Assembly: GCA_037439965.1 (NCBI GenBank)
Contig: JBBIVB010000002.1
Location: 1-61,411, forward strand
From: Candidatus Veblenbacteria bacterium
GTDB lineage: Bacteria; Patescibacteriota; Patescibacteriia; Veblenbacterales; UBA10138
Direction: 5' to 3'
Length of the DNA stretch: 61,411 nucleotides
The stretch's first letter is position 1; each line of letters starts with the position of its first letter. Made by a program: the position numbers and the translations under genes. Below the pieces are notes generated by a model. That model ran no database searches. It worked only from the letters and a program-made list of their open reading frames with translations, and was not told where the DNA came from. Shown one piece after another: positions 7,392-44,321 of this stretch.

Positions 7392-7393
7392 AC

Positions 7394-7422: not shown

Positions 7423-7460
7423 TATATAATTGAACTTAGTAAATCTTAAAGATAAAGAAA

Positions 7461-7855: not shown

Positions 7856-7861
7856 TTAATC

Positions 7862-7896: not shown

Positions 7897-7949
7897 ATAT
7901 AGTTTATTAAGTTATAATTAAAAGGCAGATATTTAAAGTATAAGTAAAG

Positions 7950-8344: not shown

Positions 8345-8360
8345 GTATTCTACTTATTTT

Positions 8361-8392
8361 TAATCCCGCTCCTTATATAAGGAGAGGGATTA
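8361..8392 (+). terminator. stem-loop after pilin copy 2
   Basis: TAATCCCGCTCCTTA pairs with TAAGGAGAGGGATTA (15-bp arms, one mismatch). No clear downstream T-run. Confidence 0.4.
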
Positions 8393-8452
8393 AAACTTTA
8401 AATTTATATTCTAGTATGGTATATCTAGTTTAGATTGAAATATTGATTTTAT

Positions 8453-8878
8453 ATGGATTTTGATATGCACCTTATTTTCTTTAGAAAATATTATTTAGCT
8501 GTTCCAATTAGTTTATTAGTTTTTGGTTTATTTTTGTTAAGCCAACCTAGCTTGGTATTAGCGCAATCACCAGGTGATTTTGGATTGAAAACTACAGCTC
8601 AAACTGCTGGATTATCTATTAGCTCTACAAATCCAATTAAAATAGTAGGAAATATTATTAATTATTTGCTTGGTTTCTTAGGAGTAATTTTTTTAGGCTT
8701 AATAATTTATGCCGGATTCTTATGGATGACTGCTTCAGGCAACAGCGAACAAGTGCAGAAAGCTAAAGAATTAATAGGTAACGCAGTTGTTGGTTTAATA
8801 ATTATTTTGGCCGCCTTTGCTATTTCAACCTTTGTTTTTAGTAATCTAAAGATAGCTACTGGCGGAGCTGGTATTTAG
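8453..8878 (+). CDS. TrbC/VirB2-like pilin paralog
   Basis: LIIYAGFLWMTASGNSEQVQKAKELIGNAVVGLIIILAAFAIS. An N-terminal hydrophobic signal is present. Confidence 0.7.
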   Translation: MDFDMHLIFFRKYYLAVPISLLVFGLFLLSQPSLVLAQSPGDFGLKTTAQTAGLSISSTNPIKIVGNIINYLLGFLGVIFLGLIIYAGFLWMTASGNSEQVQKAKELIGNAVVGLIIILAAFAISTFVFSNLKIATGGAGI

Positions 8879-9271
8879 ATGATAAATAAAAATACAACAT
8901 ATTTATTACTCACTTGGCTATTTAGCATCGCTATTGTTTTTTGTTTATTATCCACCCCAGTTATAGCCGCTGTCTGCTCGGATGATATTGGTTTGTGTCA
9001 AGCTGCTGGTTGGGTAATACCAACAGGCGTGCCTACCCCCGTAGCTATTCTGGGTGCAATTATTAGATTAATTTTAGGTATAGTAGGAGTAATATTTTTT
9101 ATAATGATTTTATATGCTGGATATAATTGGATGACTGCAGCCGGCAATGAGGAAAAAATTAGGAGTGCTAAAATAATCATAGCTCACGCTACTATAGCTT
9201 TAGCGATTATTTTAGGTTCTTATGTTGCTGTGAATTTTGTTTTAACCAATTTACAGCAATCGATGCGATAA
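8879..9271 (+). CDS. TrbC/VirB2-like pilin paralog
   Basis: MILYAGYNWMTAAGNEEKIRSAKIIIAHATIALAIILGSYVAV. The ATG directly follows the TAG of the upstream gene. Confidence 0.7.
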   Translation: MINKNTTYLLLTWLFSIAIVFCLLSTPVIAAVCSDDIGLCQAAGWVIPTGVPTPVAILGAIIRLILGIVGVIFFIMILYAGYNWMTAAGNEEKIRSAKIIIAHATIALAIILGSYVAVNFVLTNLQQSMR

Positions 9272-27300: not shown

Positions 27301-29553
27301 AATGACGATATTCCAGAGAGAATTAGGGTAGAGCAAGATAATACCAATCAAGATAATACCAATACTGAAGAAAGCAAAGAGGTATGGTCTACAAAAAAAC
27401 AAGAGGATTTATTCTTGGGTCTTAAAGGCTATTGTTTAGAGAAAGATGATTCCCGTTCTATTAATAATCGTCGTGATAGCCCTTGCCTTACTTGGCTTCC
27501 TTTGGATATTTTAGGGGGAGAATTATCTATCTATGATTATGCTCCAGCAGCTGGTTATCAAGCTGATAATTCTTACTATTGCAGTCAGGCTAAAGGCAAT
27601 TGGAAAGACTTCCTAAAAAAGAATAATTACTCTCAAAATAACTATCAATATGCTACTCATTATAAATATAAAGGATCAGCTACAGCCGGCCCTTCTGATT
27701 ATCCTTATTATTACGCTGGAGACGACGGAATAAAAGATTGTGGCTCTGTGAAGGATTTAAACAACAAAAAAAATTGGTATTGTGGTAATGAGAACTATTG
27801 TGCCTCTGCTTTAGTTGATAAAGTCGTGATATTTCCCGTGCAGGCAACGGATGTTGAGAAACAGCTTAAGAAAGATGATATTCATAGTATTATAATTAAT
27901 GTTGATGAAAACACTGGCGGTGGTTATGGAGGTCATTATCTTCAGCAAGATTTTACACTAAATCGAAGTAATAATTGGTGTACATATGTTCTTCATAGGA
28001 AGCTTGATAGTAATTTTGAGCGAGCAGAAGATAAAAGTATTTGTACCAACATACCAGGCAACTATCTTGTTTCACCATCCTTAGGTTATGGTATGGTGGG
28101 CTGTAATTCAAATGAAGATTGGGTAGCTATTAAGGCGGTATTTGATTCTAACTCAACAAAACTGTTGGGTTATAATATGGCTAAGTGTGATGGTTCACCA
28201 GATACCGGTGGAGCTGTAATGTGTAATTTTAGAATTAATTTATTTGAGTATTGTACTAATGTTGTTCAAACAACGCATGGCACCGAAAATAAAGCTTGGA
28301 CAGACAGAATTTTACGTAATAATAATTTTGAAGCCGTTCCCGGTGCCATTACTGAACTTGGATTTAATGTTAATAGATCACCTTGGCCATATGGTAGAAT
28401 AACAAAGCATCCTGATAAGCAGTTGTTTGTTTTAAGTGATAAATTTGGAAGAGAGATCTATGATAATAAATTTTTTACAGTTTCTACCCCTTTTGGTTGT
28501 CAAGGTGTTTGTGGTAGTCCACCTAATAATAATAATAATATAAAGCAGGGAATGTGCATTTCTGATGATATTAATACTTTAGGCAATCCTTGTAATAATT
28601 CTGGTGAATGCGGTGATCCTGGTATTTGTACTGGTTATATTTATAGTGTATGTGAAAGCGGCATTAACAAAGGAAAATTATGTACCAAAAATTCTGATTG
28701 TGGCAGTGATTCGTCGTGTGTTTCTTTTAGTAAACAAATATCTAACACCAACCAAACAGAAGGTGTGCGTCGGGTTCAGGAATTGTTTGCTAAAGTATAT
28801 GATTTCTTCTCTTATGATTATTCTAATAGCCGTTACATTTCTGAAATTTCTACTGTTATCGATAATGATATAAGTTTGAAAGATGAGGGTGCTTTAGATA
28901 CCCTTAACAAAGTGCCTCATCGTCCAGATGTTAGAGAAGTAATGTTTGATTCAGATAAAAAAATGAATTACGAAGGCAATACTGGTTTTACTTTAAGTTC
29001 TGATTTTGGCTCTATAAATTCTACTGACGGAAAAGCCTTAATTTTAAATTCGCCAGCGGCGGTGACGGCTAAATTTTATGCTTACAATGCTAACGGCGAA
29101 CAAATGCCATTAACCGAAGTGAGAGTTGATTGGTTTGGCGATTATTTAAATTCAGCCGGCGCCAAAGGTAAATATAAAAACCATAAGCATATGTGCCAGC
29201 CGATGACTATCAAAAATTCGGATAATATTGATATTGCCAATCCTAATTATAACTTTGGCGATTCAACACAGGCTTGTATTGATGATTCCGTAGAATCTTT
29301 AGGTTATTTCAGCTTTACCAGTATATTGACTTGTTCTGTTGATGGGGCAGGGCTTCCATCTTGCTCCTCGGTTTCTGGCAACAAGGCTTGTTGGGATCAA
29401 ACTTTACAAGCCTGTGTTTACAAACCTCGTGTTTATGTAGAAGATAACTGGGAGTGGTGTGCTACTGGAGAGAAAGGTAACAAATGCGATCCTTCTAATA
29501 ATAAAGCTTGGCTTAATATGTCTGGCGCTGGTAAGATAATTGTTTATCCGTAA
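21388..29553 (+). CDS. giant (2721 aa) cysteine-rich secreted or surface protein
   Basis: An uninterrupted 8.2-kb ORF with an N-terminal TM/signal (WLIASLLVVSFLVYGFVFFA). Nine copies of C-x(4-7)-GC-x-x-[FYL] are present, e.g. EQGCTAFW, SAGCEEFT, QDGCEQFT and AQGCTAFS. A CBM4/9-like segment (VNPSFEE...NGGFED) is also present. Confidence 0.8.
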   Translation: MSWFHQLPTKTRHWLIASLLVVSFLVYGFVFFAQPRPASAFLGFGDITFDINSLSHFIWNKIQKAWEDVWKHAVSVAYKNAVRTFTQRIAYDMAVYISSGGAGQKPMFVTQPVGKYLENVADDAAGDFLDTLSKESGYLKQGLCEPVDLRAKLTIQMPMFNEIKPRKPKCSLSDIKKNLEKSWEEAKDYYSNISLSDYQQFFDLTQNDLGIAFEVLGKSEEKILKEIGGKSLEQQMTQGFKNVGSFISNYIKTPGKVISETPGSALESASRQENFTGDVIADALGVFTNTLISRLQKRIFQKGLAPVGGGSGGGPSSIFGPSATIGIEYAIQVNSSLSTPNLVIDTSQMDIISELLNCPDIRYASVNNCTLDQSFATALRQAEEGQALTLREAIAKGYVNGNWKFANIRPMDIRRPDAWYLTDLRKLRKARIIPVGWELAAEKFPGKTLNEVMNGFNDQNSPYWHLIDPDWVLRAPPAQCRLKGAGQILQSQGPNREETCVDTEQCVAEKDDGSCVAWGYCLAEKNTWRFWGDSCELPVGSGRAPYATCQTFKDKNNNELSLLTNSLANYNDDICNDSSVSCRWYSWAPLNTDTVVGPDRYSSEEVDKIYLKNLDKLSCTTSEQGCTAFWRATNINDAELVARGATGAEPIERLVNYVSTTAGEQYISYASLNKVYLREAPQYLNCYDVDGAGDPISANDSPQCKNYASLCSSQEVGCELYTPADGSPKVPAVVQAQDYCPDVCVGFNRYTQASVFFEKKPATNFDFIPSSAQTCPAQSAGCEEFTNLDQSTEQGEKREYYVELRQCIDISDSRAGTFYTWVGSELPGFQLKSWQLQTADDGSPYTVDGLGECREAPTFPFPASNPDCKQFYDINGNIYYRFASKTVSASDSCYRYRATNITQDDCTATNGSWDTGLNACIYNAIPGEGKACKAKYNGCREYRGPTSAASQLLFPVSTFGDPEPITNYPLDASFTSGWGSGQNTKDALSITGHAYASGTGNPPYVSPTITRVIPAGVAKAGHKYLFTFWAKRYTTTNNLTIESQPNDTYLWDIDISTIGLSDDWREYQVEEKLDENLADTLNNFGAFLRFKSTYPFVIDNIVARDVSDTFYLVKNSWQTPAVCEAQFLGCQRYTNSKQQTLFATGFSSLCRQEAVGCEALINTQNSDSPQSETITSGTQTITIPADSLVYRVYDKTKSCPANAEACRPIGQPVLDASGAITSWGDKLVKLDPDNFNPQKNINSPLCERSQDGCEQFTSESGVSYFKDPGLALCEYRQSDGRWYKKGSSELCNLLVNPSFEEQKDHGNNLIVNGGFEDSILSNWMPSSANTWMLTKQEFYLGSQSVKMATNKGGYLRQTIRLIPNQAYTARVFTKADNDTRRTLHVFGCGVDLFDFSQNAGSWEKLQITYIPTTSACTIELAVNSGSSEIYFDNTSVFLAEDFRGWVRNGKIYYSSLGSALTTLSAINSIPGRYWESKVLEIESSDEQYSGVWSDWVDVGVKNEERYFTISANLYVPDIPQNANLSYWRISPHVTPEVNNMNCAIRPSTGVSTCHHYDFVSPAPQAEDRTVTIADKGKWVHKKFTIKADPDIRYVSVGVITNENCSVAGGCRANQVVYVDQVNITEGILDPAYTCPSEAQGCTAFSDPQLTQSIFYYLDNNKLDKNSCNGKVSEKGGCLLFANYNDANLRWNSNATYAKSAEGVATAPENTGNLDTNIILKVGRSRVCAEWATCQNSAITYDAQSGQSRSICYLLGRCDKAGDIASNKCSNWKVINNPQPLELASYQTRSIDFNSPDLSGYTIPHQYPIDTLTQKNYSTSHNDIRLTYINKIIKACSGPAIDEGKPCTTDADCVNDCKSTLRCGGTGDVCDLIGQTAPNCSDDNPCSYADVGIDGSGPGDQNKNTLAKLCRIYPQPDAPFPSSLAKFDADGNIQSRDTGFKDANICQTGEDCECNYKQVKFSGGEQRYYSFNNDDIPERIRVEQDNTNQDNTNTEESKEVWSTKKQEDLFLGLKGYCLEKDDSRSINNRRDSPCLTWLPLDILGGELSIYDYAPAAGYQADNSYYCSQAKGNWKDFLKKNNYSQNNYQYATHYKYKGSATAGPSDYPYYYAGDDGIKDCGSVKDLNNKKNWYCGNENYCASALVDKVVIFPVQATDVEKQLKKDDIHSIIINVDENTGGGYGGHYLQQDFTLNRSNNWCTYVLHRKLDSNFERAEDKSICTNIPGNYLVSPSLGYGMVGCNSNEDWVAIKAVFDSNSTKLLGYNMAKCDGSPDTGGAVMCNFRINLFEYCTNVVQTTHGTENKAWTDRILRNNNFEAVPGAITELGFNVNRSPWPYGRITKHPDKQLFVLSDKFGREIYDNKFFTVSTPFGCQGVCGSPPNNNNNIKQGMCISDDINTLGNPCNNSGECGDPGICTGYIYSVCESGINKGKLCTKNSDCGSDSSCVSFSKQISNTNQTEGVRRVQELFAKVYDFFSYDYSNSRYISEISTVIDNDISLKDEGALDTLNKVPHRPDVREVMFDSDKKMNYEGNTGFTLSSDFGSINSTDGKALILNSPAAVTAKFYAYNANGEQMPLTEVRVDWFGDYLNSAGAKGKYKNHKHMCQPMTIKNSDNIDIANPNYNFGDSTQACIDDSVESLGYFSFTSILTCSVDGAGLPSCSSVSGNKACWDQTLQACVYKPRVYVEDNWEWCATGEKGNKCDPSNNKAWLNMSGAGKIIVYP

Positions 29554-29793: not shown

Positions 29794-32775
29794 ATGCGCG
29801 TATCATTTAGTTTATTAGCTAAATTAAAACGGTTAATAATACCTACCAAGGCAGCTTGGCTAGGGATGATTATCTTAACCGTTGTTTTGTTGTTAATAGC
29901 TTTTCCTGTTTATGCTGGTTTAGGTCAAGCTTTAGGTAATTTTTTGTTATGGATTGCTAGATTATTTGCCAATCTAACCGTTACTCTGATTGACATTTTA
30001 TTAGCCGTAGCTAAATACAATAATTTTATTAATGCGCCAGCTATAGAAGTCGGTTGGGTGATAATGCGTGATCTGATGAATATGTTTTTTATCGTGATGT
30101 TGTTGCTTATAGCTTTCGGTACGGTTTTTAGAATAGATAATTACCACTACCGCCATCACTTAGGCAAGCTTTTAATTATGGCGGTGCTGATTAATTTTTC
30201 CAAAGCCATCACTGGTTTTATGATAGATGTTTCACAGGTAGCAATGCTAACTTTTGTTAATGGTTTTGCTCAAGCAGCTGCAGGTAATTTTGTACAAGGT
30301 TTACATTTGAATAAAATGTTTCAGTTTTCTCAAAATCCTGATAATCCAGGACAAGCTAGTGAGTGGACATTATTTACCGCTGCTTTGTTAGGTTTGATTG
30401 TTGTGATTATGACAACAGTGGTGGTGGGTATATTTGTGATAGTATTTATTGTACGTATTGTAGCTTTATGGTTTTTAATTATTATTTCTCCCCTAGCTTA
30501 TATCTTGAATATTTTCCCAGGCAGAAGCCAGGAATACGCTTCAATGTGGTGGAATTATTTTATAAAGTATGCTTCAGCTGGTCCGATTTTAGCTTTCTTT
30601 TTATGGTTGTCGCTTTCAGTGATGCAGATGACGCAGGGTAATACTTCTACCAATTTATTAAATAATGGAAATATAACCAATAGTGAAGGTGGGTTTGGTT
30701 TATCTAAGATTGTTTCGTCTTCAATAACAGAAATTGGTTCTTCACCAGTACTACTCTCTTTTATTATCAATATAATTTTATTAATCGGCGCACTATGGAT
30801 GACCCAGAAACTCGGTGTCGCCGGCGGCCAACTCGCTGGCGCGGCTATAGCGAAGATGCAAAGATTAGGGATGGGTGTTATTAAAACACCATTTAAGGGG
30901 GTGTGGAAGGCTACTAAAGCAGCGGCTAGTAGAGCTAATGAGAAAATAGTGAATGCTACTGGCGGCAGATTGAGTCTTGATTATAGAGATTATGTAAAAT
31001 CATATAAAAAAGTTAGAGCAGAACGTCGGCGCGAAAGATATAGAGGATTTGAGGGTCAGACGAAAAAATATTTTAGAGAATTTGGAGTCAGTCCAACTGG
31101 CATTGCTAAATTTGTATTAGGAGCGATCCCTCGTCATCGGATTCAAAAGCAACAAGAGCAAGATAGTAAAAGAATGGTTGAATTAACTGAAAAATTAGAA
31201 AGACCAAACAAAGCTGCTGAAAAACGTAAACAGTTACAGGAAGAAGAGAATCAACTCACGGGGCAAATGAGTAGTTTAGAAAAAGAACGTGAGGCGCTAC
31301 AATTAGATTCGCAACTTAATCCAAAAAATGTGGCTGCTAATACTAATCGTATAAATGAAATTAATAGTAAAATAAACGATACGCAAAATAAATTAGCAAG
31401 GAATAATGTTCTTCAGGGGATGACAGACCAAGAGCTGGAACAGCAGGTTAATATTGAATTGAAGGCAGATATTCGTAAATTAATGAAAGAAATACAAGAT
31501 TTAAATCCAGTAGTAAATTTGATACCATTATTAGACTACGATAAGATAATAGATTTTCACAAAAAACAACTTAGTAAAACCGATGCCGATTTAGTTAAAC
31601 AAGATACAGATCTTAATAAAGAAAAGGCCACTTTACAAAATAAATTACTGCTTACTAAAGATAAATATGAGGCTAATAAAATAAAGGAGCAAATAGATAA
31701 AATAAATCAACAATTAACAGAAGTTAAAACTAAACATATAAGTATTCTACAAGAGAAAGATGCGCTTAATGGAATAACGGAGCCAGTTGCTCGTGAACAG
31801 AAAGCACGTGAATTACAGAGTATATATGAAAGCAAACAAAAGAATTTAGTTGAACAACAAGCAGTTTTAAGTGAACGTTTTAATACTGCCGATCTTACTC
31901 AATCAGAACGTGAAATGATACTTAATGAAGTCAACAAACTTAAGAAAATTATAAAAGAAAGAAAAGAAGCTTGGTATCAACCGAAAGAATCAGGGGAATA
32001 TTATATAGAAAGAGAAAGAAGAAGATCGGTGGCTGAAGAAAAACAAAAGATAACCTCAAAGAATGCGGAAGAATTAATTGCCGACCACGAGGCGGCGATT
32101 AAGGCAAAGAATGAATATCAAGCTATGGCTTATGCAGAAAAATTAGCAGAAGATGGTAATTTAAATACATTAATAAATCATTATGGTAGAACAGGAGTAT
32201 TATCTAAAACTAAAGGTAAGAGCAATTTTGAGGGACTTAATGAATACAGAGAAAAAGTTTTACAAGGTCAATTGGGTTTAGATGAACAAACAGCTTATAG
32301 ATACCAAAATGATTTATCTTATATTGCTGAAGCGCTTGGGCAGTGGGCTTTGGCTCGCAGTGTTGGATTTAATGTTGATAATCGTAAATTCTATAAGTTA
32401 TCTGAAAAAGAACATACTGCGTCGGCTTTGACTGAAATATTAAAAATGGACCCGCAACGTATAAGTTCTTCCCTTACTCGTTTGGCTTATGGTGGAGAAG
32501 TGGTACAGCCAGACGGTACACTAAAATTTGACATAGATGCTTTAGGTAAGGCCATTGCTATAGCTACCGCTAATGCTGTACAAAACCACATGAATCGTTT
32601 TCAGATTAGTACCGCCACCAACTTAATACAACCGCATGTATTGGATCAATTAAAACTGTTGGTAGCTCAAGGTAAAATATCACAAGAATATATTAACGGT
32701 TTATTAAGACGTGTTTGGTCAGCTCAAGAGAAAACAGTTGCACAAATTATTAATTATTTACGCGGTAGTATATAA
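29794..32775 (+). CDS. TrbL/VirB6-like polytopic membrane protein with a long coiled-coil C-terminal domain
   Basis: The N-terminal ~350 aa has about 7 TM segments in a VirB6-like arrangement. The C-terminal ~600 aa is K/E/Q-rich with heptad character. Confidence 0.6.
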   Translation: MRVSFSLLAKLKRLIIPTKAAWLGMIILTVVLLLIAFPVYAGLGQALGNFLLWIARLFANLTVTLIDILLAVAKYNNFINAPAIEVGWVIMRDLMNMFFIVMLLLIAFGTVFRIDNYHYRHHLGKLLIMAVLINFSKAITGFMIDVSQVAMLTFVNGFAQAAAGNFVQGLHLNKMFQFSQNPDNPGQASEWTLFTAALLGLIVVIMTTVVVGIFVIVFIVRIVALWFLIIISPLAYILNIFPGRSQEYASMWWNYFIKYASAGPILAFFLWLSLSVMQMTQGNTSTNLLNNGNITNSEGGFGLSKIVSSSITEIGSSPVLLSFIINIILLIGALWMTQKLGVAGGQLAGAAIAKMQRLGMGVIKTPFKGVWKATKAAASRANEKIVNATGGRLSLDYRDYVKSYKKVRAERRRERYRGFEGQTKKYFREFGVSPTGIAKFVLGAIPRHRIQKQQEQDSKRMVELTEKLERPNKAAEKRKQLQEEENQLTGQMSSLEKEREALQLDSQLNPKNVAANTNRINEINSKINDTQNKLARNNVLQGMTDQELEQQVNIELKADIRKLMKEIQDLNPVVNLIPLLDYDKIIDFHKKQLSKTDADLVKQDTDLNKEKATLQNKLLLTKDKYEANKIKEQIDKINQQLTEVKTKHISILQEKDALNGITEPVAREQKARELQSIYESKQKNLVEQQAVLSERFNTADLTQSEREMILNEVNKLKKIIKERKEAWYQPKESGEYYIERERRRSVAEEKQKITSKNAEELIADHEAAIKAKNEYQAMAYAEKLAEDGNLNTLINHYGRTGVLSKTKGKSNFEGLNEYREKVLQGQLGLDEQTAYRYQNDLSYIAEALGQWALARSVGFNVDNRKFYKLSEKEHTASALTEILKMDPQRISSSLTRLAYGGEVVQPDGTLKFDIDALGKAIAIATANAVQNHMNRFQISTATNLIQPHVLDQLKLLVAQGKISQEYINGLLRRVWSAQEKTVAQIINYLRGSI

Positions 32776-34605: not shown

Positions 34606-35082
34606 ATGCGGCAATTTGTAGTTCCACAATTTATAGATGTTGAGGATAAGATAATCGGCCCCATTACCACTAGACAATTTTTAATTATCTTAGCCGGTGG
34701 TTTGTCGCTATTTATCGAGTTTAAGCTATGCGATTTAATGTTATTTATTATTTTAGGAATTTTAACTATTGTTTTTACCTTAGCTTTTAGTTTCTTGAAA
34801 GTTAATAGTATGCCTTTGCATTTTTTTATAATAAATATTATCCAGACTTTTAAACGGCCAAAATTACGCGTTTGGGATAAAACACTTAACCCTAAGGAAA
34901 TTAAAGAGCTGCTTAATAAACAACAAGAGGAAGTAGTTGCTGTTACACCTCAAATTAAACCGCACGTAACCTTAACCCATTCACGCTTGCAGGAGTTATC
35001 TTTAATTGTAGATACCGGAGGAGCATATAAATCAGACAACGGGGAGTTAGAGGTAAAAGATACCAATGATAGAAAAATTTAG
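34606..35082 (+). CDS. PrgI-family (VirB3-like) small membrane protein
   Basis: The N-terminus MRQFVVPQFIDVEDKIIGPITTRQFLIILAGG is followed by two TM helices. This pattern is characteristic of PrgI family proteins encoded next to VirB4. Confidence 0.65.
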   Translation: MRQFVVPQFIDVEDKIIGPITTRQFLIILAGGLSLFIEFKLCDLMLFIILGILTIVFTLAFSFLKVNSMPLHFFIINIIQTFKRPKLRVWDKTLNPKEIKELLNKQQEEVVAVTPQIKPHVTLTHSRLQELSLIVDTGGAYKSDNGELEVKDTNDRKI

Positions 35083-35275: not shown

Positions 35276-35959
35276 ATGCCTTCTAAAAATAAATTAGCTA
35301 AAGCAAAAAAAGGACCACCCACTCAAACTTATTTAGATATAGTTGCTATTAAAGAGGATTGTGTGATGATGCGTGACAGTACACTGCGAGCAGTGGTTTT
35401 GTGTTCCTCGATTAATTTTGCTTTAAAAAGTGAGGAAGAGCAAAATGCCTTAATTCAAGCTTATGCCCAGTTTCTTAATTCCTTAGATTGGCCTTTACAG
35501 ATAGTTATTCAGTCACGTAAACTTAATATTGATAAATATGTGGAAGAGTTGCAGAATTTATCTAAACAGCAACCTAATGAATTATTGCGAGTATTAACTG
35601 ATGAATATTTATCTTATATCAAAGAGCTGGTTAGTTTAGGAGAAATTATGACTAAGCGTTTTTATATAGTGATTCCTTATAGTCATCTTTCTGATAAACG
35701 GCGTGGATTTTGGTTTAGATTAAAAAGCATTTTTAGCCTTGGCGAATATATACAATTATCTCGGGAAAACTTTGCTAAAAACAAAGAAGCTTTAGATAGG
35801 AGAGTAGATTTTGTGATATCAGGATTGGCTTCTATGAGTATTAAGGGCATACGTTTAGACACACAAGGATTGATTGAGCTTTATTATAATTCTTATAATC
35901 CAGAACTAGTAGAAACTCAGCCATTAAAAGAATTTGATAAATTACAGCTGGAAAGTTAA
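35276..35959 (+). CDS. hypothetical protein resembling the N-terminal domain of VirB4-type ATPases
   Basis: YLDIVAIKEDCVMMRDSTLRAVVLCSSINFALKSEEEQNALIQAYAQFLNSL parallels the N-terminus of the downstream VirB4 (IKVRDLISPSSFRVEPNRVELNGIMVRTIFVLSYP). No P-loop is present. Confidence 0.4.
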   Translation: MPSKNKLAKAKKGPPTQTYLDIVAIKEDCVMMRDSTLRAVVLCSSINFALKSEEEQNALIQAYAQFLNSLDWPLQIVIQSRKLNIDKYVEELQNLSKQQPNELLRVLTDEYLSYIKELVSLGEIMTKRFYIVIPYSHLSDKRRGFWFRLKSIFSLGEYIQLSRENFAKNKEALDRRVDFVISGLASMSIKGIRLDTQGLIELYYNSYNPELVETQPLKEFDKLQLES

Positions 35960-36002: not shown

Positions 36003-37880
36003 GTGGCTTTATTTGCTAAAAAAGTTAAAAGAGAATTAAAAGCGTCTGCAGCCCCTGTTAAGGCAGAGTCTGAATTGGTGGGTAGAGAGTTGGTGGAAGC
36101 AGAACGAGTTTTGCGCGAAGGAGTAATTAAGGTTCGCGATTTAATCAGCCCTTCTTCTTTTAGGGTAGAACCTAACCGAGTAGAGCTTAATGGTATAATG
36201 GTGCGCACTATTTTTGTATTAAGCTATCCACGCTATATTTCAGTTGGTTGGTTTTCACCAATTATTAATATGAATGTAACGCTGGATGTAGGGATGTATT
36301 TTTATCAAGTGCGGCCAGAAATAATTTTAAAACAGTTACGCAATAAAGTGGGAGCGCTAGAAGCACAAATTATTGCCGATCACGAAAAAGGAGCGCCCCG
36401 TGACCCTATTACCGAAACGGCTTTAAAGGATATTGAACAGTTAAGAGATGATTTGACCCAAGGTATTGAAAAGTTTTTTCAATTTGGTTTGTATGTGACA
36501 GTTTATGCCAAAGATTTAAAAGAGTTAGATAAAGTTTCTGAACAAGTGGAAGCTGCCTTTGGCTCCAAGTTGGTGTATTCGCGTCGGGCCTTGTGGCAAG
36601 TAGAGCAGGGCTTTAATTCCACCCTACCATTAGCCAATGATGAATTGCAGATTTACTTTAATATGAATACTTCACCGATTGCTTCTTCATTTCCTTTTAT
36701 GTCTTCCGAATTAACTTCTGATAATGGGATTTTGTATGGTATCAATCGTCACAATAACAGTTTGATTTTATTTGATAGATTTTCTTTACAGAATGCTAAT
36801 GCTGTTGTTTTTGCAACATCAGGTGCTGGTAAATCTTATGCAGTTAAATTAGAAGTTCTGCGTTCTATGATGATGGGTACCGATGTTATAATTATTGATC
36901 CGGAAATGGAATACAAACATTTAACTGAGGCTGCTGGTGGTGCTTATATAAATATTTCTTTAAATTCCCAATCACATATCAATCCTTTTGATTTACCAAG
37001 ACCAGTGGGTGAAGTATTGGCTGGTGATATTATTCGTTCAGCGGTGATTACTTTAAAAGGTTTAATTCGTTTAATGTTGGGAACTTTAACTCATGAGGAA
37101 GATTCCATCATTGATCGTGCCTTACTTGAAACTTATGCCAAAAAAGATATCACTAGTCAAAGCGATTTGTCGCGCGTAGAGCCGCCGCAAATGTCCGATT
37201 TAGAAGAAGTGTTGTCTGGTATGGTAGGCGTTGAAAATTTACTTATTCGTTTACAGAAATTTACTAAAGGAACCTTTGCTGGTTTATTAAACAATCCTAC
37301 TAATATTGATGTTAAAAATCAGTTAGTAGTTTTTTCAGTACGTGATTTGGAAGATGAGTTGCGGCCTATGGCTATTTATACCATTGTTAATTACATTTGG
37401 AATGTAGTGCGGTCAGAAATGAGAAAGAGAATTATGGTAATTGACGAAGCTTGGTGGTTAATGCAAAATGAAGATAGTGCTAAATTTATTTTTGCTTTAG
37501 TTAAACGTTGCCGTAAATACTATTTAGGTGTAACTACCATCACTCAAGATGTAAATGATTTTTTAACTTCACCTTATGGTCAAGCTATAGTTACTAATTC
37601 TTCTTTACAATTATTACTTAAGCAATCTCCAGCTGGTATTGATAAAATAGCAAAAACTTTCTTATTAACTGAGGGTGAAAAGTATTTGCTTTTAGAGTGT
37701 GGCATAGGCGAAGGAATTTTCTTTGCTGGCTCTAAACACGCGGCTATTAAGATAGTGGCTTCTTATACCGAGGATCAGTTAATTACTTCTGACCCGAGGC
37801 AATTATTAGAGATTGAGCATGCCAAAAAAGAGTTTGAAGAAAGTTTAGCTCAAGAACAAAAGTTGGAAGCCAAAACTTAG
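36003..37880 (+). CDS. virB4: VirB4/TrbE/CagE-family T4SS ATPase
   Basis: Walker A FATSGAGKSYAVK, Walker B RIMVIDEAWWLM, and TTITQD downstream. GTG start. Confidence 0.8.
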   Translation: MALFAKKVKRELKASAAPVKAESELVGRELVEAERVLREGVIKVRDLISPSSFRVEPNRVELNGIMVRTIFVLSYPRYISVGWFSPIINMNVTLDVGMYFYQVRPEIILKQLRNKVGALEAQIIADHEKGAPRDPITETALKDIEQLRDDLTQGIEKFFQFGLYVTVYAKDLKELDKVSEQVEAAFGSKLVYSRRALWQVEQGFNSTLPLANDELQIYFNMNTSPIASSFPFMSSELTSDNGILYGINRHNNSLILFDRFSLQNANAVVFATSGAGKSYAVKLEVLRSMMMGTDVIIIDPEMEYKHLTEAAGGAYINISLNSQSHINPFDLPRPVGEVLAGDIIRSAVITLKGLIRLMLGTLTHEEDSIIDRALLETYAKKDITSQSDLSRVEPPQMSDLEEVLSGMVGVENLLIRLQKFTKGTFAGLLNNPTNIDVKNQLVVFSVRDLEDELRPMAIYTIVNYIWNVVRSEMRKRIMVIDEAWWLMQNEDSAKFIFALVKRCRKYYLGVTTITQDVNDFLTSPYGQAIVTNSSLQLLLKQSPAGIDKIAKTFLLTEGEKYLLLECGIGEGIFFAGSKHAAIKIVASYTEDQLITSDPRQLLEIEHAKKEFEESLAQEQKLEAKT

Positions 37881-38962: not shown

Positions 38963-40141
38963 ATGAGGAAGATAATTTATATAAAATTACTATTAGTTTG
39001 CTCTTTGGCTGTTTTTTATATTAGTTTGCCATTTATAGCTCAAGCCCAGCCAGCAGTCTTAAATCCTTGTTGGACTGAGAGTGAATGCGAATCGGCTGGA
39101 GGTTTATGGGGTAAAAGTACTGAAAAATATCCTGACGAAACGAGTGGTATCAGTGGTTTTGAATTAGATGATGGTAAAAGCAACTCTTGCCAAGATATTG
39201 ATAACCAAGACACAGCCAAATGTTATGCTAAGCCGCCTACTATTAAATTACAGGTGCCAATTCCGGGATTATCTCAAGAGTTTACCGGTGGCCTAGCGGT
39301 TTATATTTCCTATTTTTATAAATTTTTTATTTCAGCTATTGCCGTGATGGCTGTAGTAATGGTGATGTGGGGCGGTTTTAAACGGCTTTATGCCGCCGGT
39401 AGCCCAGATAAGATTAAAGATGCCAACGATACCATTGTTAGTGCCATCAGCAGTTTAGTTATTGCTTTATTATCTTATACCTTACTTAACTTAGTTAATC
39501 CAAAATTAGTTGATATTCCCGGACTTGCTATTGAAATGCCTAAAAGGCAAGGTTTTGGTGAATGGTGTGGGGATGATATTGAAAAGGCAAATCCTGCTAT
39601 GAGATGTGGGGATATTTATAAAGATCCAAACACTGGATATAAATGTAGAATTAGTACCTGTATGGATACGGGTACTGGTTGTTTTCCTGATCCAGACAAA
39701 CCAAAGACTAATAATTTTCTTTCTTACTCTTGTCAAGAAAATCATGTTGCTTGTAAAAAGGTTACTGATGAGAATGTTAAGCAATATCATGGTAACGCTA
39801 GCGAAGAGCATGATGTTTATGAATCAGCTTGTAATTCTTTCAGTAAAGATGAGGATATGTGTACTTGGGTTGAATATTATGGCCCAATGAGCAATGATGA
39901 TAAGTGTGAATGGTATTCAAAGGATTTCCGGGATCAATTTTGTAAAGGTAAGACAAAATGTGATGATTTTAATATATTTTTATGGGGTAATGGAATTCTC
40001 CCGACATTTGGGCCTAGTGGAACAGAATTTGCGGCGTGTCATAAAGATTGGTGTAATTTTGGTTGTAAGGTTTTTTGGATGGATCGTCAGGTTCCTTCGG
40101 TTCCAATTACTGTTATGGAATATTGGTATTGTTATGAGTAA
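38963..40141 (+). CDS. pilin-module protein fused to a cysteine-rich C-terminal domain
   Basis: Signal peptide, Cys-rich N-terminal segment, the module FYKFFISAIAVMAVVMVMWGGFKRLYAAGSPDKIKDANDTIVSAISSLVIALLSYTLLNLVNPKL, then about 200 aa with more than 20 Cys. Confidence 0.65.
   Translation: MRKIIYIKLLLVCSLAVFYISLPFIAQAQPAVLNPCWTESECESAGGLWGKSTEKYPDETSGISGFELDDGKSNSCQDIDNQDTAKCYAKPPTIKLQVPIPGLSQEFTGGLAVYISYFYKFFISAIAVMAVVMVMWGGFKRLYAAGSPDKIKDANDTIVSAISSLVIALLSYTLLNLVNPKLVDIPGLAIEMPKRQGFGEWCGDDIEKANPAMRCGDIYKDPNTGYKCRISTCMDTGTGCFPDPDKPKTNNFLSYSCQENHVACKKVTDENVKQYHGNASEEHDVYESACNSFSKDEDMCTWVEYYGPMSNDDKCEWYSKDFRDQFCKGKTKCDDFNIFLWGNGILPTFGPSGTEFAACHKDWCNFGCKVFWMDRQVPSVPITVMEYWYCYE
39312..39501 (+). 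repeat. 190-bp near-identical segment shared with 42041..42230
   Basis: Manual alignment finds 2 mismatches in 190 bp. It encodes the pilin-like two-helix module. The flanking coding sequence is unrelated. Confidence 0.85.
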
Positions 40142-40169
40142 TTGGTATTGTTATAATTATTAATGTGAT

Positions 40170-41435
40170 ATGTTAGAAAATCTAGATAAAAGAAAAATAT
40201 TTATTATACTCGCTATGGTGTTGATGGCGGTACTGATTATTGTCTTTTTGTATTTTATTTGGCGAGAGCCAAAAGTGCCAGTTACGCCTCAAGGTAATCA
40301 AAATGTGCCACCAGGACAACTGCCATCGGTAGGGCCGGGTAATGTAAATGTTGGTGGTCCGCCTTTGAACGCTAATTTACCGCCGGTTACCACTATTCCT
40401 AGTCAACCAACCGGTCCTGTTGCTAACCAGGTGTCGCCCGTAGCCACCGGTGGTTTAACCGCCAGTCCTCAAGTAGTTCCAGGTTCTGCTCAATTTCCGC
40501 TGGTTACTTCCAGCGGTACCCGATATTATAATCCTAGTGACGGTAAATTTTATCAATTATCTCCTTCAGGACCAGTGGCTTTAAATGAGATTCCTTATCC
40601 TGATGTACAAAATATAACCTGGTCGCAGAGAGGCCAAAGGGCGGTTTTAGAATTTCCTGATGGTGCTAATATTGTTTATGATTTTGATAGTAAAAAACAA
40701 TTTACTTTGCCAAAAGAGATGACCGAATTTTCTTTTTCGCCTAATGCTAATGAAATAGCTGGTAAGTTTTTAGGTGAACAGGAATCGGATAAATGGTTAG
40801 TGACTGTTAATAGCACTGGCTCTAATTTAAAGGGTATTGAACCTTTGGGTGACAATGCGGATAAAGTGGAAGTTAATTGGTCACCTCAAGGGCAGGTGGT
40901 AGCGTTGTCGCGTACTGGTGAACCTTTAAGTGGTTTGAATGAAGAAGTATTGTTAATTGGTTTACAAGGTGAAAATTTTAAGTCATTAGAAGTAGAAGGC
41001 AGGGGTTTTGCGTCACAATGGACACCTTCAGGCAATCAGTTACTGTATAGTATTTATAGTGAAAGAAATAATTTTAAACCAGAATTATGGGTAGTTGATG
41101 GTTCGGTAGATCAAATTGGTTACAATAAAAAATATCTTAGTTTACCTACTTGGGTTGATAAATGTACTATTACTGCCGATTCTAATACTGCTTATTGTGC
41201 AGTGCCACAAAATTTACCAGATGGTTCTGGTTATTTACGAGAATTAGCCAAAGGTTTGCCAGATTATTTTTATCGGGTTGATTTACAAAGCGGTACTAGT
41301 ACGCTAATTGCTGCTCCAGTGGCTGATAATAATTATGTTAGCGCAAGTAACCTAACTTTATCTAACGATGGTAGGATATTATATTTTATAGATGAGTTGT
41401 CCGGCACTTTACGCAGCTTGCAGTTGATGCCGTAA
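40170..41435 (+). CDS. membrane-anchored protein with Pro-rich linker and TolB-like beta-propeller repeats
   Basis: N-terminal TM segment, a P/Q/V-rich spacer, then repeated SP.G....F..-type blades (WSPQGQVVALS, WTPSGNQLLYS, LSNDGRILYF). Confidence 0.5.
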   Translation: MLENLDKRKIFIILAMVLMAVLIIVFLYFIWREPKVPVTPQGNQNVPPGQLPSVGPGNVNVGGPPLNANLPPVTTIPSQPTGPVANQVSPVATGGLTASPQVVPGSAQFPLVTSSGTRYYNPSDGKFYQLSPSGPVALNEIPYPDVQNITWSQRGQRAVLEFPDGANIVYDFDSKKQFTLPKEMTEFSFSPNANEIAGKFLGEQESDKWLVTVNSTGSNLKGIEPLGDNADKVEVNWSPQGQVVALSRTGEPLSGLNEEVLLIGLQGENFKSLEVEGRGFASQWTPSGNQLLYSIYSERNNFKPELWVVDGSVDQIGYNKKYLSLPTWVDKCTITADSNTAYCAVPQNLPDGSGYLRELAKGLPDYFYRVDLQSGTSTLIAAPVADNNYVSASNLTLSNDGRILYFIDELSGTLRSLQLMP

Positions 41436-41470
41436 GTTAAAATTTATAAGTTAGAATTTGTAATATTGTT

Positions 41471-41506
41471 ATATTTTGTGTTAGCTATATATTTTGTGTT
41501 AGCTAT
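41471..41506 (+). repeat. perfect 18-bp tandem direct repeat x2 (ATATTTTGTGTTAGCTAT)
   Basis: Read directly: unit 1 is 41471-41488 and unit 2 is 41489-41506. Confidence 0.85.
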
Positions 41507-41530
41507 AGTATTAAGATTAACAGGGAATTT

Positions 41531-41575
41531 AAGTAGATATTTTTAGACGATCGTCTAAAAATATCTACTTTTTGA
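41531..41575 (+). terminator. 40-bp perfect palindrome followed by a T-run (intrinsic terminator)
   Basis: AAGTAGATATTTTTAGACGA pairs with TCGTCTAAAAATATCTACTT, followed by TTTTG. Confidence 0.7.
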
Positions 41576-41631
41576 TTGGCACTTTTAATATCCTTTTTAA
41601 AATCAGTAGTTTTTGTTAAACTAAAGTTGTT

Positions 41632-42873
41632 ATGCGGTTAAGATATAATTTAAAATATAACTATTTTATCTGGCTAGTAATTATTTGGTTGGTGGCCGGT
41701 TTGTTTTTCCCCTTAACAGTTTTTGCCGATTGTATACCTGAAAATCAAGTAACCTCTCTCCCAGGAAGTACTACTTGTGCCGATATTCTTTGTTGCCCTG
41801 GATTAGATTGTGAACCATTTGTGAAAGAATCAAATTATAAAAGTGCCGAGGTACAAACCTCAATTACCACCCATTATGCTCGTTGTATTAAATCAGATAA
41901 TTCGCAAGGTAGTTATGAAGAAGAAGCCAAGCAGTCGTATGAAGTGAAATTTGTTCCGCAAATAACCATTCCTGGCAGTACTTTTACTAAAGGTCAGCCC
42001 ATTACCATTACAGGTGATACTTTAGCCCAGTATTTAGCTGATTTTTATAAATTTTTTATTTCAGCTATTGCCGTGATGGCTGTAGTAATGGTGATGTGGG
42101 GCGGTTTTAAACGGCTTTATGCCGCCGGTAGCCCAGATAAGATTAAAGATGCCAACGATACCATTGTTAATGCCATCAGCGGTTTAGTTATTGCTTTATT
42201 ATCTTATACCTTACTTAACTTAGTTAATCCTAAGTTGACCGAGTTTAAAACTTTAGAAATTTATACTGTGGGTAGAGAAGAATTCAGTTTGAATCCAGAG
42301 TGGAATCCAGAGTTACAATTAGCAGCCCAATCCGATCCCACTTCTTCTCTTTTTAATATAAAAACAATTGAACCCAATTTAGCTGTTGGTAATAATGTTA
42401 TTCCTAAGTTAAGAACCGAAGCAGCGTTAAATTTACATAAAGCCATGGAAATTTTAAGAAGCAAAGGTTATGGCGCAGTTTTGACTGAAGCCTATCGTAG
42501 TCCAGAAGAACAAAAAAGATTAATTAAAGAAAATTGCCAAAATCCACCAGGCAGCAAAACCTGCAATCCCAAGCCAGGTAAATCACCAACTTGTGTAATG
42601 AAAAACGGCCTCTATAGTTGCCCGCATTCTACTGGTTATGCTGTAGATATATGGGCGACCAAGAATTATGAATTGTGCATTGTACCACCAAAAAATAATA
42701 GCCTGACCTATTTTTGTTATAGCAAAGGTAAACCCGAGTGTTTACAAAATGAATGTCAGGCAGCTTTGATTGCTGCCATGAAAAAAGCTGGTTTTTGTAA
42801 TTTATGTTCTGAACCTTGGCATTTTGAGTACATTGGTGGTGATTATAAAGGTTCGCCGGGATGCACGTGTTAA
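41632..42873 (+). CDS. pilin-module protein fused to an M15 (VanY/LAS-type) peptidoglycan peptidase domain
   Basis: It carries the same two-helix module as 38963. The C-terminal domain has SCPHSTGYAVDIW (H-x6-D zinc site) and CSEPWHFEY, as in D-Ala-D-Ala carboxypeptidase / VanY-like M15 enzymes. Confidence 0.7.
   Translation: MRLRYNLKYNYFIWLVIIWLVAGLFFPLTVFADCIPENQVTSLPGSTTCADILCCPGLDCEPFVKESNYKSAEVQTSITTHYARCIKSDNSQGSYEEEAKQSYEVKFVPQITIPGSTFTKGQPITITGDTLAQYLADFYKFFISAIAVMAVVMVMWGGFKRLYAAGSPDKIKDANDTIVNAISGLVIALLSYTLLNLVNPKLTEFKTLEIYTVGREEFSLNPEWNPELQLAAQSDPTSSLFNIKTIEPNLAVGNNVIPKLRTEAALNLHKAMEILRSKGYGAVLTEAYRSPEEQKRLIKENCQNPPGSKTCNPKPGKSPTCVMKNGLYSCPHSTGYAVDIWATKNYELCIVPPKNNSLTYFCYSKGKPECLQNECQAALIAAMKKAGFCNLCSEPWHFEYIGGDYKGSPGCTC
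42041..42230 (+). repeat. 190-bp near-identical segment shared with 39312..39501
   Basis: See the partner repeat at 39312..39501. Confidence 0.85.
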
Positions 42874-42983: not shown

Positions 42984-44321
42984 ATGGCTAAAGATAAAAC
43001 AATTTACACTTGTTCTACTTGTGATGCACAGTATCCTAAATGGCAGGGTAAGTGTTCTACTTGTGGCAAGTGGGGGACAATAAGTGAAACCCCAATTTTT
43101 TTATTTTCTGCCAAAGATTTACTCCAAGTATCATCAGTTAAGTTAGATTCAAAGCAAAATTATTTTAAACGCGAATCAACTACTATTAAAGAGTTGGATA
43201 GGGTTTTGGGTGGCGGTTTGGTAAATGGTTCTGTGGTATTGTTAGCGGGTGATCCAGGGGTAGGCAAATCCACTTTAGTATTACAACTGGCCGCCAATTT
43301 TCCCGATAAGATTTTGTATGTTTCTGGTGAAGAATCAGCAGAACAAGTAAGCGGTCGTTTGCGTCGCCTGAATTTACATCCAGAGAATTTGTCGTTTCTT
43401 AATGACCAAAGACTAGAGGCGATAATAAGCGCGGTTGAAAAAGATAAGCCCGGTTTGCTGATAGTTGATTCCTTGCAGACTATCTTAGCTTCTGATATTA
43501 ATGGCGCACCGGGGAATACCAATCAAATCAAAACGGTTACTGCTAAATTAGTAGAGTTGGCTAAGACCCGTAATCTAACAACCCTACTTATTGGACACGT
43601 TACCAAGGGGGGTTTGTTGGCTGGCCCAAAAACACTTGAGCATCTAGTAGATGTGGTATTGAGTTTTGAGAGCGAATCTTCATCAAACTTGCGTTTTTTA
43701 CGTACCAGTAAAAATCGTTTTGGACCCACTGATGAGGTTGGTATTTTTCAAATGGTAGAAAGCGGTTTGATTGAAGTTATTAATCTAGCTGCTGTTTTTT
43801 TAGCCAATCGTCATCAAGGACCAGGAGCTTGTTTAAGCAGCTTAACCCAGGGTTCGCGCAGTTTTTTTATAGAAGTCCAGGCCTTGGTGGCTTATAGTCG
43901 TTATGGTCAAGCTAGACGCACCGCCTCTGGCTTTGATTATAACCGTTTGCAATTATTGTTGGCGGTATTATCTGAAAAAGTCGGTATTAAATTATCATAT
44001 AGTGATGTTTATATTAATTTAGTGGGTGGTTTTAAATGTCGGGAACCTGGTTTGGATTTAGCTGTGTGTTTAGCATTAGCCTCGGCTTATAAAAAAAGAG
44101 CAGTGCCGCAAGATGTAGTGGTAGTAGGCGAGGTTGGTTTGGGTGGAGAAGTTAGGGGAGTGGGCAATTTAAATAAAGTTTTAGCTGAAGCGTCAGCTTG
44201 GGGTTTAAAACAGGTTATAACTTCTGGTTTGGATAATAAATTAAAATTACCCGCAGGGCTGAAGGTGATCAGCATAAAAAATGTAGCCGAAGTTATTAGG
44301 TGGTTAGACAATCAACTATGA
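42984..44321 (+). CDS. radA: DNA repair protein RadA/Sms
   Basis: Zinc ribbon CSTCDAQYPKWQGKCSTCGKWG, Walker A GDPGVGKST, KNRFG, and a Lon-like C-terminus. Confidence 0.9.
   Translation: MAKDKTIYTCSTCDAQYPKWQGKCSTCGKWGTISETPIFLFSAKDLLQVSSVKLDSKQNYFKRESTTIKELDRVLGGGLVNGSVVLLAGDPGVGKSTLVLQLAANFPDKILYVSGEESAEQVSGRLRRLNLHPENLSFLNDQRLEAIISAVEKDKPGLLIVDSLQTILASDINGAPGNTNQIKTVTAKLVELAKTRNLTTLLIGHVTKGGLLAGPKTLEHLVDVVLSFESESSSNLRFLRTSKNRFGPTDEVGIFQMVESGLIEVINLAAVFLANRHQGPGACLSSLTQGSRSFFIEVQALVAYSRYGQARRTASGFDYNRLQLLLAVLSEKVGIKLSYSDVYINLVGGFKCREPGLDLAVCLALASAYKKRAVPQDVVVVGEVGLGGEVRGVGNLNKVLAEASAWGLKQVITSGLDNKLKLPAGLKVISIKNVAEVIRWLDNQL

Follow-up and report, generated by a model that had tools for sequence, protein, structure and literature searches.

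Genes A and B, two neighbours on a metagenomic contig of Candidatus Veblenbacteria, pose two questions: how did an almost identical segment come to lie inside genes that otherwise have little in common, and what does a predicted cell-wall peptidase joined to a pilin-like segment do among secretion genes? Both lie on the 61,411-nucleotide stretch analysed here (GenBank assembly GCA_037439965.1, contig JBBIVB010000002.1, positions 1 to 61,411; hereafter the window), gene A at 38963–40141 and gene B at 41632–42873, both on the + strand, as open reading frames (ORFs) of 392 and 413 amino acids, respectively. Both genes belong to a Gram-positive-type type IV secretion system (T4SS) that is encoded on the chromosome of an ABY1-class member of the Patescibacteria.

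We consider it probable that, taken as a whole, the locus encodes a T4SS-linked wall peptidase anchored by a hairpin, and that the hairpins of A and B have been homogenised by gene conversion. A Sec signal peptide would export each protein, and two helices forming a VirB2-like hairpin, their short connecting loop rich in Lys and Arg and located in the cytoplasm, would hold it in the membrane. Gene B would set a zinc peptidase of the LAS-type M15 family at the cell wall, where local cleavage of peptidoglycan stem peptides or cross-links would let the T4SS pass through the wall, and gene A would put Cys-rich domains without a recognisable fold on the same anchor. Recent non-reciprocal homologous recombination would have copied one hairpin onto the other within the only stretch common to A and B, and such conversions would recur across the clade, so that the hairpin evolves in concert within each genome.

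A Near-Identical Hairpin Cassette in Two Genes

A repeat search of the window revealed a direct repeat of 196 nucleotides with 98% identity, located at 39312–39507 in gene A and at 42041–42236 in gene B (both + strand, spacing 2729 nucleotides). The longest exact repeat in 20 shuffled versions of the window was 15–18 nucleotides, which excludes a chance origin. Pairwise MAFFT alignment with 110-nucleotide flanks and an offset scan showed four mismatches and abrupt edges: identity starts at the Phe codon of FYKFF and ends just past NPKL, and the flanking DNA on both sides is unrelated. Between copies A and B, G/A at 39441 replaces Ser with Asn and A/G at 39452 replaces Ser with Gly, while A/T at 39502 and A/G at 39505 are synonymous and stand at the 3′ edge of the tract. 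The initial annotation had described a cassette of 190 nucleotides (39312–39501) with two differences; exactly two occur in that span, and the encoded peptide, consisting of a first transmembrane segment, a loop rich in Lys and Arg and a second transmembrane segment, agrees with the string that it gave. The two hairpins are 97% identical in protein. Both core differences (42170 and 42181 in copy B) alter the protein and, relative to the closest relative, amount to one private change per copy (n = 2 sites).

The rest of the two genes had been called unrelated. This holds for the flanking DNA, but the proteins share short motifs around the hairpin. One, Q-[VI]-x-I-P-G, precedes it and the other, N-P-x-L, follows it; both show little or no variation in the two families (amino acids 94–103 and 179–182 in gene A, 109–115 and 199–202 in gene B) and lie outside the conversion tract. 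They could be structural joints or processing sites.

Two other readings of the cassette were considered. Its conservation between genomes, in amino acids and not in nucleotides, speaks against a DNA or RNA element; an Rfam search of the window found two tRNAs only. A mobile cassette newly inserted in both genes was rejected, since the orthologues in all related genomes have the hairpin at the same position.

A repeat of this kind could also be an artefact of assembly, with one gene threaded through the cassette of the other, so that the near-identity or the chimeric structure is unreal. The only public run containing the region (run X1) is a subsurface metagenome, and its Logan contigs have a depth of 3–10×. 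They match copy B and both its junctions without differences and also span the 3′ junction of copy A. However, they break at the repeat and leave uncovered 39181–39311, which holds the 5′ junction of copy A, as well as its two private variants; within the cassette, copy A is matched only by a B-type contig. The low coverage and these gaps speak for an artefact, but the two copies differ at four positions and were therefore assembled as separate sequences, three of the four junctions are spanned, and a de Bruijn graph would not merge cassettes that had diverged. Full-length orthologues of A (P0039, 66% identity, 98% coverage) and of B (P0002, 62% identity, 99% coverage), with N-terminal domain, hairpin and C-terminal domain in the same succession, were found in an independent metagenome-assembled genome (MAG), the order A, PD40-like gene, B is conserved in many MAGs, and the same mosaic occurs in at least ten assemblies from other groups. 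We regard an artefact as extremely improbable. Mis-assembly, which had been named as the finding that would overturn the initial annotation, is thus countered by the orthologues and at three junctions, the 5′ junction of copy A being the part that the contigs leave bare.

Probable Gene Conversion between the Hairpins

Gene conversion best accounts for the near-identity of the A and B hairpins. CAZMMW01, the closest MAG, has an orthologue of gene A with 45% identity in the N-terminal domain and 73% in the C-terminal domain, and one of gene B with 54% and 61%, respectively; more distant genomes also have both genes. The presence of separate orthologues elsewhere means that A and B are old paralogues rather than recent duplicates, and recent tandem duplication is thereby ruled out as the cause of their likeness. 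Tandem duplication may account for a few pairs with similar flanks in other genomes (CAZXEE01, JBMOHE01).

The hairpin DNA follows the genome rather than the gene. It is 97% identical within the window, 82% identical within CAZMMW01 and 76–80% identical between these two genomes. In a four-taxon comparison, 21 informative sites group window A with window B and CAZMMW01 A with CAZMMW01 B, five support orthology and one supports the third grouping; the five orthology-supporting sites are located at the tract edges. On a neighbour-joining tree (28 hairpins, 15 genomes, 200 bootstraps), paralogues group by genome in 10 of the 12 multi-copy genomes. Bootstrap support out of 200 was 200 for the window, 188 for CAZMHN01, 185 for JAGVEX01, 183 for CAZMMW01 and 175 for CALFUV01; at third codon positions, the values for the same genomes were 200, 182, 137, 154 and 182, respectively.

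Such mosaics, with a high-identity hairpin (78–100%) between unrelated flanks, were found in at least ten other MAGs, while the median identity of hairpins between genomes was 52% across all loci. PKTH01 (Ca. Parcubacteria BM507; loci L022 and L073), where three hairpin copies are 99–100% identical in DNA, independently reaches the extreme seen in the window. The C-terminal flanks of the two L022 copies have diverged from each other, and the L073 copy stops at a contig end.

Could purifying selection, combined with genome-specific codon usage or base composition, produce this likeness without recombination? The hairpin is highly constrained, and the GC content of the genomes ranges from 28% to 58%, which would inflate third-position matches within a genome. 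However, of the amino acids shared by the two window copies, 56 of 59 have identical codons against 27.7 expected from the window's own codon usage (Met and Trp excluded), and the excess over such a null reaches p < 0.001 for about 20 pairs in about 15 genomes. The window and CAZMMW01 have similar GC contents (36% and 39%) and yet cluster by genome with 183–200 of 200 bootstraps, and only a few bases beyond the edges of the hairpin, identity is already at background. An origin without recombination is, in our judgement, highly improbable.

Taken together, the pattern is the one that repeated gene conversion leaves when restricted to the sole homologous segment of A and B. The proposal that recombination keeps the hairpins homogeneous is supported by phylogeny, site patterns and synonymous sites in a large number of genomes. 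With two substitutions in 190 nucleotides, the event in the window is very recent; other genomes preserve older events, and more distant lineages retain paralogues at 53–65% identity. The strong conservation of the hairpin keeps the copies recombinable, so conversion could be a neutral by-product. Homogenisation would be either selected, for example for co-assembly of the two proteins, or neutral, and the data do not separate the two.

Concerted evolution by gene conversion is known in bacteria from the tuf genes, the rRNA operons and the pilE/pilS system of Neisseria. The hairpins share with these systems non-reciprocal recombination, an identity that is higher within a genome than between species, and sharp tract edges. 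They differ in that the tract is a single internal domain of 196 nucleotides in two otherwise unrelated multidomain genes, and, as opposed to the antigenic diversification of pilE/pilS, the outcome is homogenisation.

Domain Architecture and Membrane Topology

The protein encoded by gene A consists of a signal peptide (amino acids 1–28, AQA↓Q), a Cys-rich N-terminal domain, the VirB2-like hairpin (118–182) and a Cys-rich C-terminal domain of about 210 amino acids. That of gene B begins with a signal peptide (1–32, VFA↓D) and a Cys-rich N-terminal domain, followed by the hairpin (138–202), a linker and the M15 domain. Cys-rich domains on both sides of the hairpin in gene A and a Cys-rich N-terminal part in gene B are thus present in the ORFs as first described. 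In both proteins, a positively charged N-terminus leads into a hydrophobic stretch and then an AxA-type site, read directly from the sequence as AQA in A and as VFA in B. Hydropathy indicates two further hydrophobic segments per protein, and AlphaFold2 models place a long helix–loop–helix at 110–143/148–178 in gene A (mean predicted local distance difference test score, pLDDT, 73.5) and at 128–163/168–198 in gene B (mean pLDDT 79). Both proteins match the T4SS_pilin family PF18895 above its gathering score of 26.6 (28.8 bits for A, 35.5 bits for B), which agrees with the pilin-like module that had been proposed. Scores against the NCBIfam Mbov_0395 pilin-like model were 26.4 bits for A and 28.7 bits for B, below the cut-off of 40.

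In size, A and B are unlike small pilins, with about 90–105 amino acids before the hairpin and about 210 after it. All 21 cysteines of A and all 18 of B lie outside the hairpin, while cytoplasmic and membrane proteins of the same locus, such as VirB4, have 0–2. VirB2 and TraA propilins sit in the membrane with both termini outside and the loop in the cytoplasm. In the simplest reading, the same topology would apply here: the N-terminal domain would be outside, helix 1 would run inward, the loop KRLYAAGSPDKIKDAND would be cytoplasmic, helix 2 would run outward and the C-terminal domain would again be outside. Both flanking domains would then face the outside, where their cysteines may form disulfides.

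In more than 50 related loci, a DsbA/thioredoxin-like gene usually lies directly upstream of the pilin-hydrolase gene (for example, 9274–9924 in L002 and 9269–9922 in L003). Such a neighbour is consistent with disulfides in the Cys-rich outer domains. No DsbA-like gene is present at that position in the window or in its closest relative (L005). In an alignment of 18 sequences of family A, the Cys framework is invariant, and a Foldseek search with the model of gene A found no fold match in the PDB (best E-value 1).

The M15 Peptidase Domain of Gene B

The C-terminal part of gene B (42406–42837, + strand) was assigned by profiles, alignment and Foldseek to the M15 zinc peptidases of the VanY/VanX/LdcB type, with Cys-rich inserts. 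It scores 30.7 bits against VanY (cut-off 25) and 27.2 bits against Peptidase_M15 (cut-off 27), and the motifs HSTGYAVD and EPWHFEY, on which the domain had originally been recognised as VanY-like, are both present. By alignment, the catalytic residues are R289 (42496–42498), H332 (42625–42627), D339 (42646–42648), E394 (42811–42813) and H397 (42820–42822), all on the + strand. A total of 11 positions (R289, Q294, H332, G335, A337, D339, E394, W396, H397, F398 and E399) are invariant in 29 homologues with the full architecture. The putative zinc ligands H332, D339 and H397 are among them, so that a proper alignment retains the ligands whose loss would have spoken against the domain, and the predicted catalytic Glu is likewise intact.

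A profile search of the PDB retrieved VanX (1R44) at an E-value of 4.9e-8, and also YodJ/LdcB, Ply500, LysB4 and VanY; in the alignment to VanX, CPHTTGRAVDV is paired with SSHSRGSAIDL and EAWHF with EWWHY. Foldseek with the gene B model gave VanX (1r44, E-value 5.3e-7), BaLdcB (4mph, 8.9e-5), Ply500 (2vo9), LysB4 and VanY (5hnm), with probability 1.00 for all the matches listed. The pLDDT of the model is 83–97 over most of amino acids 241–400, with one block at 80.

With the solved M15/LAS peptidases VanX (1R44), VanY (5HNM), LdcB (4MPH, 4OX3) and Ply500 (2VO9), gene B shares the H-x6-D and E-x-x-H motifs, the Arg and the fold, but only 15–24% sequence identity. Unlike them, it carries clade-specific Cys-rich insertions (NCQNPPGS.TCNPKPGK..TC and ...C.NECQ...FCNLC) and a clade-specific C-terminal Cys, and its peptidase domain is joined to a pilin hairpin. 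Dipeptidase (VanX), LD-carboxypeptidase (LdcB), DD-carboxypeptidase (VanY) and L-Ala-D-Glu endopeptidase (Ply500) specificities are all represented among these enzymes. Since the nearest relatives differ in specificity, the bond that is cut cannot be read from the sequence of gene B; by analogy with these enzymes, the predicted substrate is peptidoglycan.

A Family with Interchangeable Wall-Cleaving Domains

In a database clustered at 90% identity, about 35 homologues of gene B cover both the hairpin and the M15 domain. Gene A has about 25 homologues, with a conserved Cys framework. An exhaustive search of 50%-identity representatives with gene B yielded 2030 proteins at E ≤ 1e-10, and in 87 of the best 150 representatives the hairpin and M15 domain align in one colinear stretch. 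Databases label members of the family only as "pilin", "hypothetical protein" or similar.

A scan of the contigs of species-representative genomes with a 12-sequence alignment collected 69 loci. Among their 105 complete hairpin-bearing ORFs, 100 match PF18895. Fused domains were assigned by Pfam, since a pattern based on M15 motifs missed true M15 domains (e.g., L030, CAZMMW01); they comprise VanY (12 ORFs), Peptidase_M15 (6), SLT (4), Peptidase_C39_2 (3) and, in one ORF each, Peptidase_M15_4, Amidase_2, NlpC/P60, 3D and SLT_3. The position of gene B itself is occupied by M15 in many genomes, by SLT in others (L017, 75 bits; L029, 61 bits), by 3D in L014 and by Peptidase_C39_2 in L025 and L033. 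The hairpin had been suggested to act as a portable anchor, and it is indeed found on several domain types, with domains at the same gene position varying by genome. Non-homologous wall-cleaving domains at a fixed position on the same anchor argue for a general, T4SS-linked function in opening the wall.

In family A, the hairpin shows a mean pairwise identity of 70%, against 28–35% for the outer domains; in family B, the values are 45% for the hairpin and 43% for the catalytic domain. Conservation of the hairpin thus exceeds the needs of a plain membrane anchor, which suggests specific contacts with itself, with other hairpin proteins or with the T4SS channel.

The Secretion Locus and Its Surroundings

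Those genes of the T4SS block for which coordinates are given here lie on the + strand. A polytopic membrane protein of 993 amino acids (29794–32775; six predicted transmembrane segments, no cysteines) is a candidate VirB6 analogue, as its size and position resemble those of the VirB6-like SEML1_0011 of S. epibionticum. It is followed by a protein of 600 amino acids, PrgI (VirB3-like; 34606–35082; PF12666, 30.8 bits), a separate VirB4 N-terminal domain of the TraC-like/TrsD-like type detected by profile search (35276–35959), and a VirB4-type ATPase of the CD1110 family, similar to MPF-FATA systems (36003–37880; NCBIfam 343.6 bits; Pfam P-loop_TraG). The VirB4 N-terminal domain is also split off ahead of the ATPase in relatives and in S. 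epibionticum (SEML1_0009/0008). Two small membrane proteins are encoded between the ATPase and gene A, and both A and B are located downstream of virB4, starting 1.1 kb and 3.8 kb from its end, respectively.

In the window and in almost every related locus, A and B are separated by the gene of a protein (421 amino acids in the window) with an N-terminal transmembrane segment and weak PD40/beta-propeller signals (40170–41435, + strand). Upstream of gene B, a perfect 20+20-nucleotide palindrome followed by a T-run resembles a terminator (41531–41570, + strand), and after it stands a promoter-like TTGGCA-16-TAAAAT (41576–41603, + strand); both are consensus matches only, and in a promoter scan of the window the matches were no better than in shuffled sequences. 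Gene B may form its own transcription unit. Directly downstream of it is radA (42984–44321, + strand), with recG a few genes further on the opposite strand. Many MAGs keep the same succession of PrgI, VirB4, A, PD40-like gene, B and radA, followed by recG. T4SS loci of class ABY1 typically adjoin comF, recG and radA (PMC12102498), and the linkage in the window fits this pattern. The GC content of the window is about 35–36%, and all relatives found were Patescibacteria MAGs (Veblen-, Kerfeld-, Falkow- and Uhrbacteria, and Parcubacteria). Many third-party annotation MAGs with typical Patescibacteria loci (L005, L006, L009, L019 and others) are titled "uncultured Gammaproteobacteria bacterium", evidently a labelling error. 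Directly upstream of the T4SS genes, at 21388–29553, the window encodes a giant secreted protein of 2721 amino acids with 98 cysteines, a single hydrophobic segment at the N-terminus and a carbohydrate-binding domain (CBM_4_9).

About 30 kb away from virB4, profile matches revealed a separate array in which six genes encode PF18895 pilins (5808–9271, + strand). Over the aligned hairpin, these pilins share 29–33% identity with the hairpin of A and B, except for 20% in the case of 8453–8878. The array gene 6393–7391 encodes two tandem hairpins and a Cys-rich tail, and 5808–6284 a short Cys-containing N-terminal domain, so the hairpin module is fused to extra domains there too. A repeat of 398 nucleotides, 100% identical, occurs at 7458–7855 and 7947–8344. 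It corresponds to exactly one PF18895 ORF of 123 amino acids plus about 15 nucleotides upstream, including the ribosome-binding site, and 11 nucleotides downstream, and the intergenic flanks are unrelated. Here a conversion or duplication the size of a whole gene has affected pilin genes of the same genome for a second time, which points to active recombination among them. In published pilin arrays, identity among members is at most 54% (PMC12102498).

Possible Role of the Hydrolase

From its context and by comparison with other systems, gene B most likely plays a VirB1-like role. A peptidoglycan-hydrolase domain is encoded inside the T4SS locus, and its positional orthologues carry SLT, 3D or C39-like domains. 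A Pfam search of gene B gave no match to SLT, CHAP or M23, which makes it an analogue and not a homologue of VirB1, PrgK and TcpG. Gene B could instead be a housekeeping membrane-bound carboxypeptidase that trims peptidoglycan in the manner of VanY or LdcB and merely lies beside T4SS genes. The closest solved relatives do include trimming enzymes, and the neighbourhood contains radA, recG and, in relatives, glutamate racemase; yet the anchor is a T4SS pilin module common to gene A, the position inside the T4SS block is conserved across many genomes, and the same position is occupied elsewhere by non-homologous wall-cleaving domains (SLT, 3D), which favours a general opening of the wall over one particular trimming reaction. 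We consider such a housekeeping function very unlikely.

The enzyme could also be aimed at the wall of a host bacterium. The hairpin would then be a genuine pilin subunit capable of polymerising; proteins A and B would be incorporated in a T4SS pilus composed mostly of small pilins, or would be placed at its tip, presenting the M15 domain and Cys-rich, adhesin-like domains, and their matching hairpins would have been selected for co-assembly. Consistent with this are the predicted topology with both termini outside, as in VirB2 and TraA, a hairpin far more conserved than an anchor would need and evolving in concert, the six additional PF18895 pilins in the genome, and the finding that the T4SS and pilin array of S. 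epibionticum are essential for epibiotic growth (PMC10633639; PMC12857230). However, no pilus has been seen in any Patescibacterium, ends of about 100 and 210 amino acids would be hard to pack in a VirB2-type helical filament, and over the aligned part, the A/B hairpin shares only 20–33% identity with the small pilins. In addition, conservation alone favours conversion, so that concerted evolution need not be selected. On balance, a host-directed hydrolase appears unlikely. It is distinctly doubtful that co-polymerisation of the A and B hairpins, perhaps together with the small pilins, yields a filament or stalk that carries the peptidase and Cys-rich binding domains to the host wall; conversion would in that case be selected, because it keeps the polymerisation interface of cargo-bearing subunits identical. 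Display of the peptidase on a filament is pure speculation.

Several observations weigh against the reading that we prefer, a T4SS-linked wall peptidase on a hairpin homogenised by conversion. Neither A nor B matches the Pfam family TrbC/VirB2 (PF04956) at E ≤ 0.1, and a profile of the window's hairpins retrieved no pilin from the PDB at E ≤ 10, so that calling the hairpin a probable pilin rests on PF18895 and the genomic context. Canonical VirB1 proteins are lytic transglycosylases and not M15 peptidases, some M15 relatives merely trim stem peptides and would not open the wall, and the peptidase activity of gene B is a prediction from its sequence. As to conversion, the 5′ junction of copy A and its private variants lack coverage, as described above, and clustering at third positions can be inflated by genome-specific composition, the codon-usage null being the only control for this. 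In addition, the multi-copy genomes LCEZ01 and CAZRDN01 did not group by genome; together with the diverged paralogues of distant lineages, they indicate that homogenisation is episodic and not universal.

Comparison with Known Systems

Membership of A and B in PF18895, and that of gene B in M15 by profile, motif and fold, are assignments to families, while VirB2 and VirB1 are functional analogies. T4SSs of MPF-FATA ancestry, unusual arrays of VirB2-like pilins and their essentiality in S. epibionticum are already known in Patescibacteria (PMC10633639, PMC12102498, PMC12857230). The described VirB2-like pilins (PMC10633639, PMC12102498) resemble A and B in belonging to PF18895, in having a signal peptide, two hydrophobic helices and a charged loop containing A-A-G, and in their setting: a VirB4/PrgI locus of MPF-FATA ancestry, no relaxase in view and multiple paralogues per genome. 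However, they are small (about 120–190 amino acids) and arranged in arrays, while A and B, with 392 and 413 amino acids, have large outer domains; some PF18895 pilins of S. epibionticum also match PF04956, which the A and B hairpins do not.

Peptidoglycan-cleaving enzymes are likewise encoded in the T4SS loci of Agrobacterium (VirB1), pCF10 (PrgK) and pIP501 (TraG), and TcpG is another example. Wall hydrolases of Gram-positive T4SSs are membrane-anchored with their catalytic domains outside (PMC12102498). Gene B differs from these enzymes in both parts: its catalytic domain is an M15 zinc peptidase instead of SLT, CHAP or LytM, and its anchor is a VirB2-like hairpin instead of a single N-terminal transmembrane helix. 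Positional orthologues of B in other Patescibacteria do have SLT, as VirB1 does.

SEML1_0007 of Ca. Southlakia epibionticum, a protein of 1113 amino acids encoded next to virB4, is essential for epibiotic growth and has a C-terminal Hedgehog/DD-peptidase fold (PMC10633639). Like gene B, it is a T4SS-linked Patescibacterium protein with a C-terminal M15-like fold, a likeness drawn by description, and it offers an experimental precedent for a T4SS-linked M15-like enzyme. Unlike gene B, it has no PF18895 recorded in the source table and comes from another class (Saccharimonadia).

Neither PMC10633639 nor PMC12102498 mentions a pilin-hydrolase fusion or gene conversion. In the literature searched, we found no description of large T4SS components with a hairpin between outer domains, of a pilin-anchored wall hydrolase with a swappable domain at a fixed locus position, or of concerted evolution of the hairpin.

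A survey of Patescibacteria noted that VirB1 is not detectable in most of those that have VirB2-like pilins, and that other enzymes might serve (PMC12102498). The pilin-anchored hydrolase family, widespread and with a swappable catalytic domain, is a direct candidate for the wall opener in such genomes. The T4SS of Patescibacteria is essential for epibiotic life in the single species tested. The A and B hairpins also provide a clean bacterial example of gene conversion at the level of a domain between otherwise unrelated genes, and their concerted evolution hints at a partner-specific role of the hairpin beyond anchoring. If the hairpins do co-polymerise, they would form a modular, cargo-decorated pilus of the conjugative type in a monoderm bacterium.

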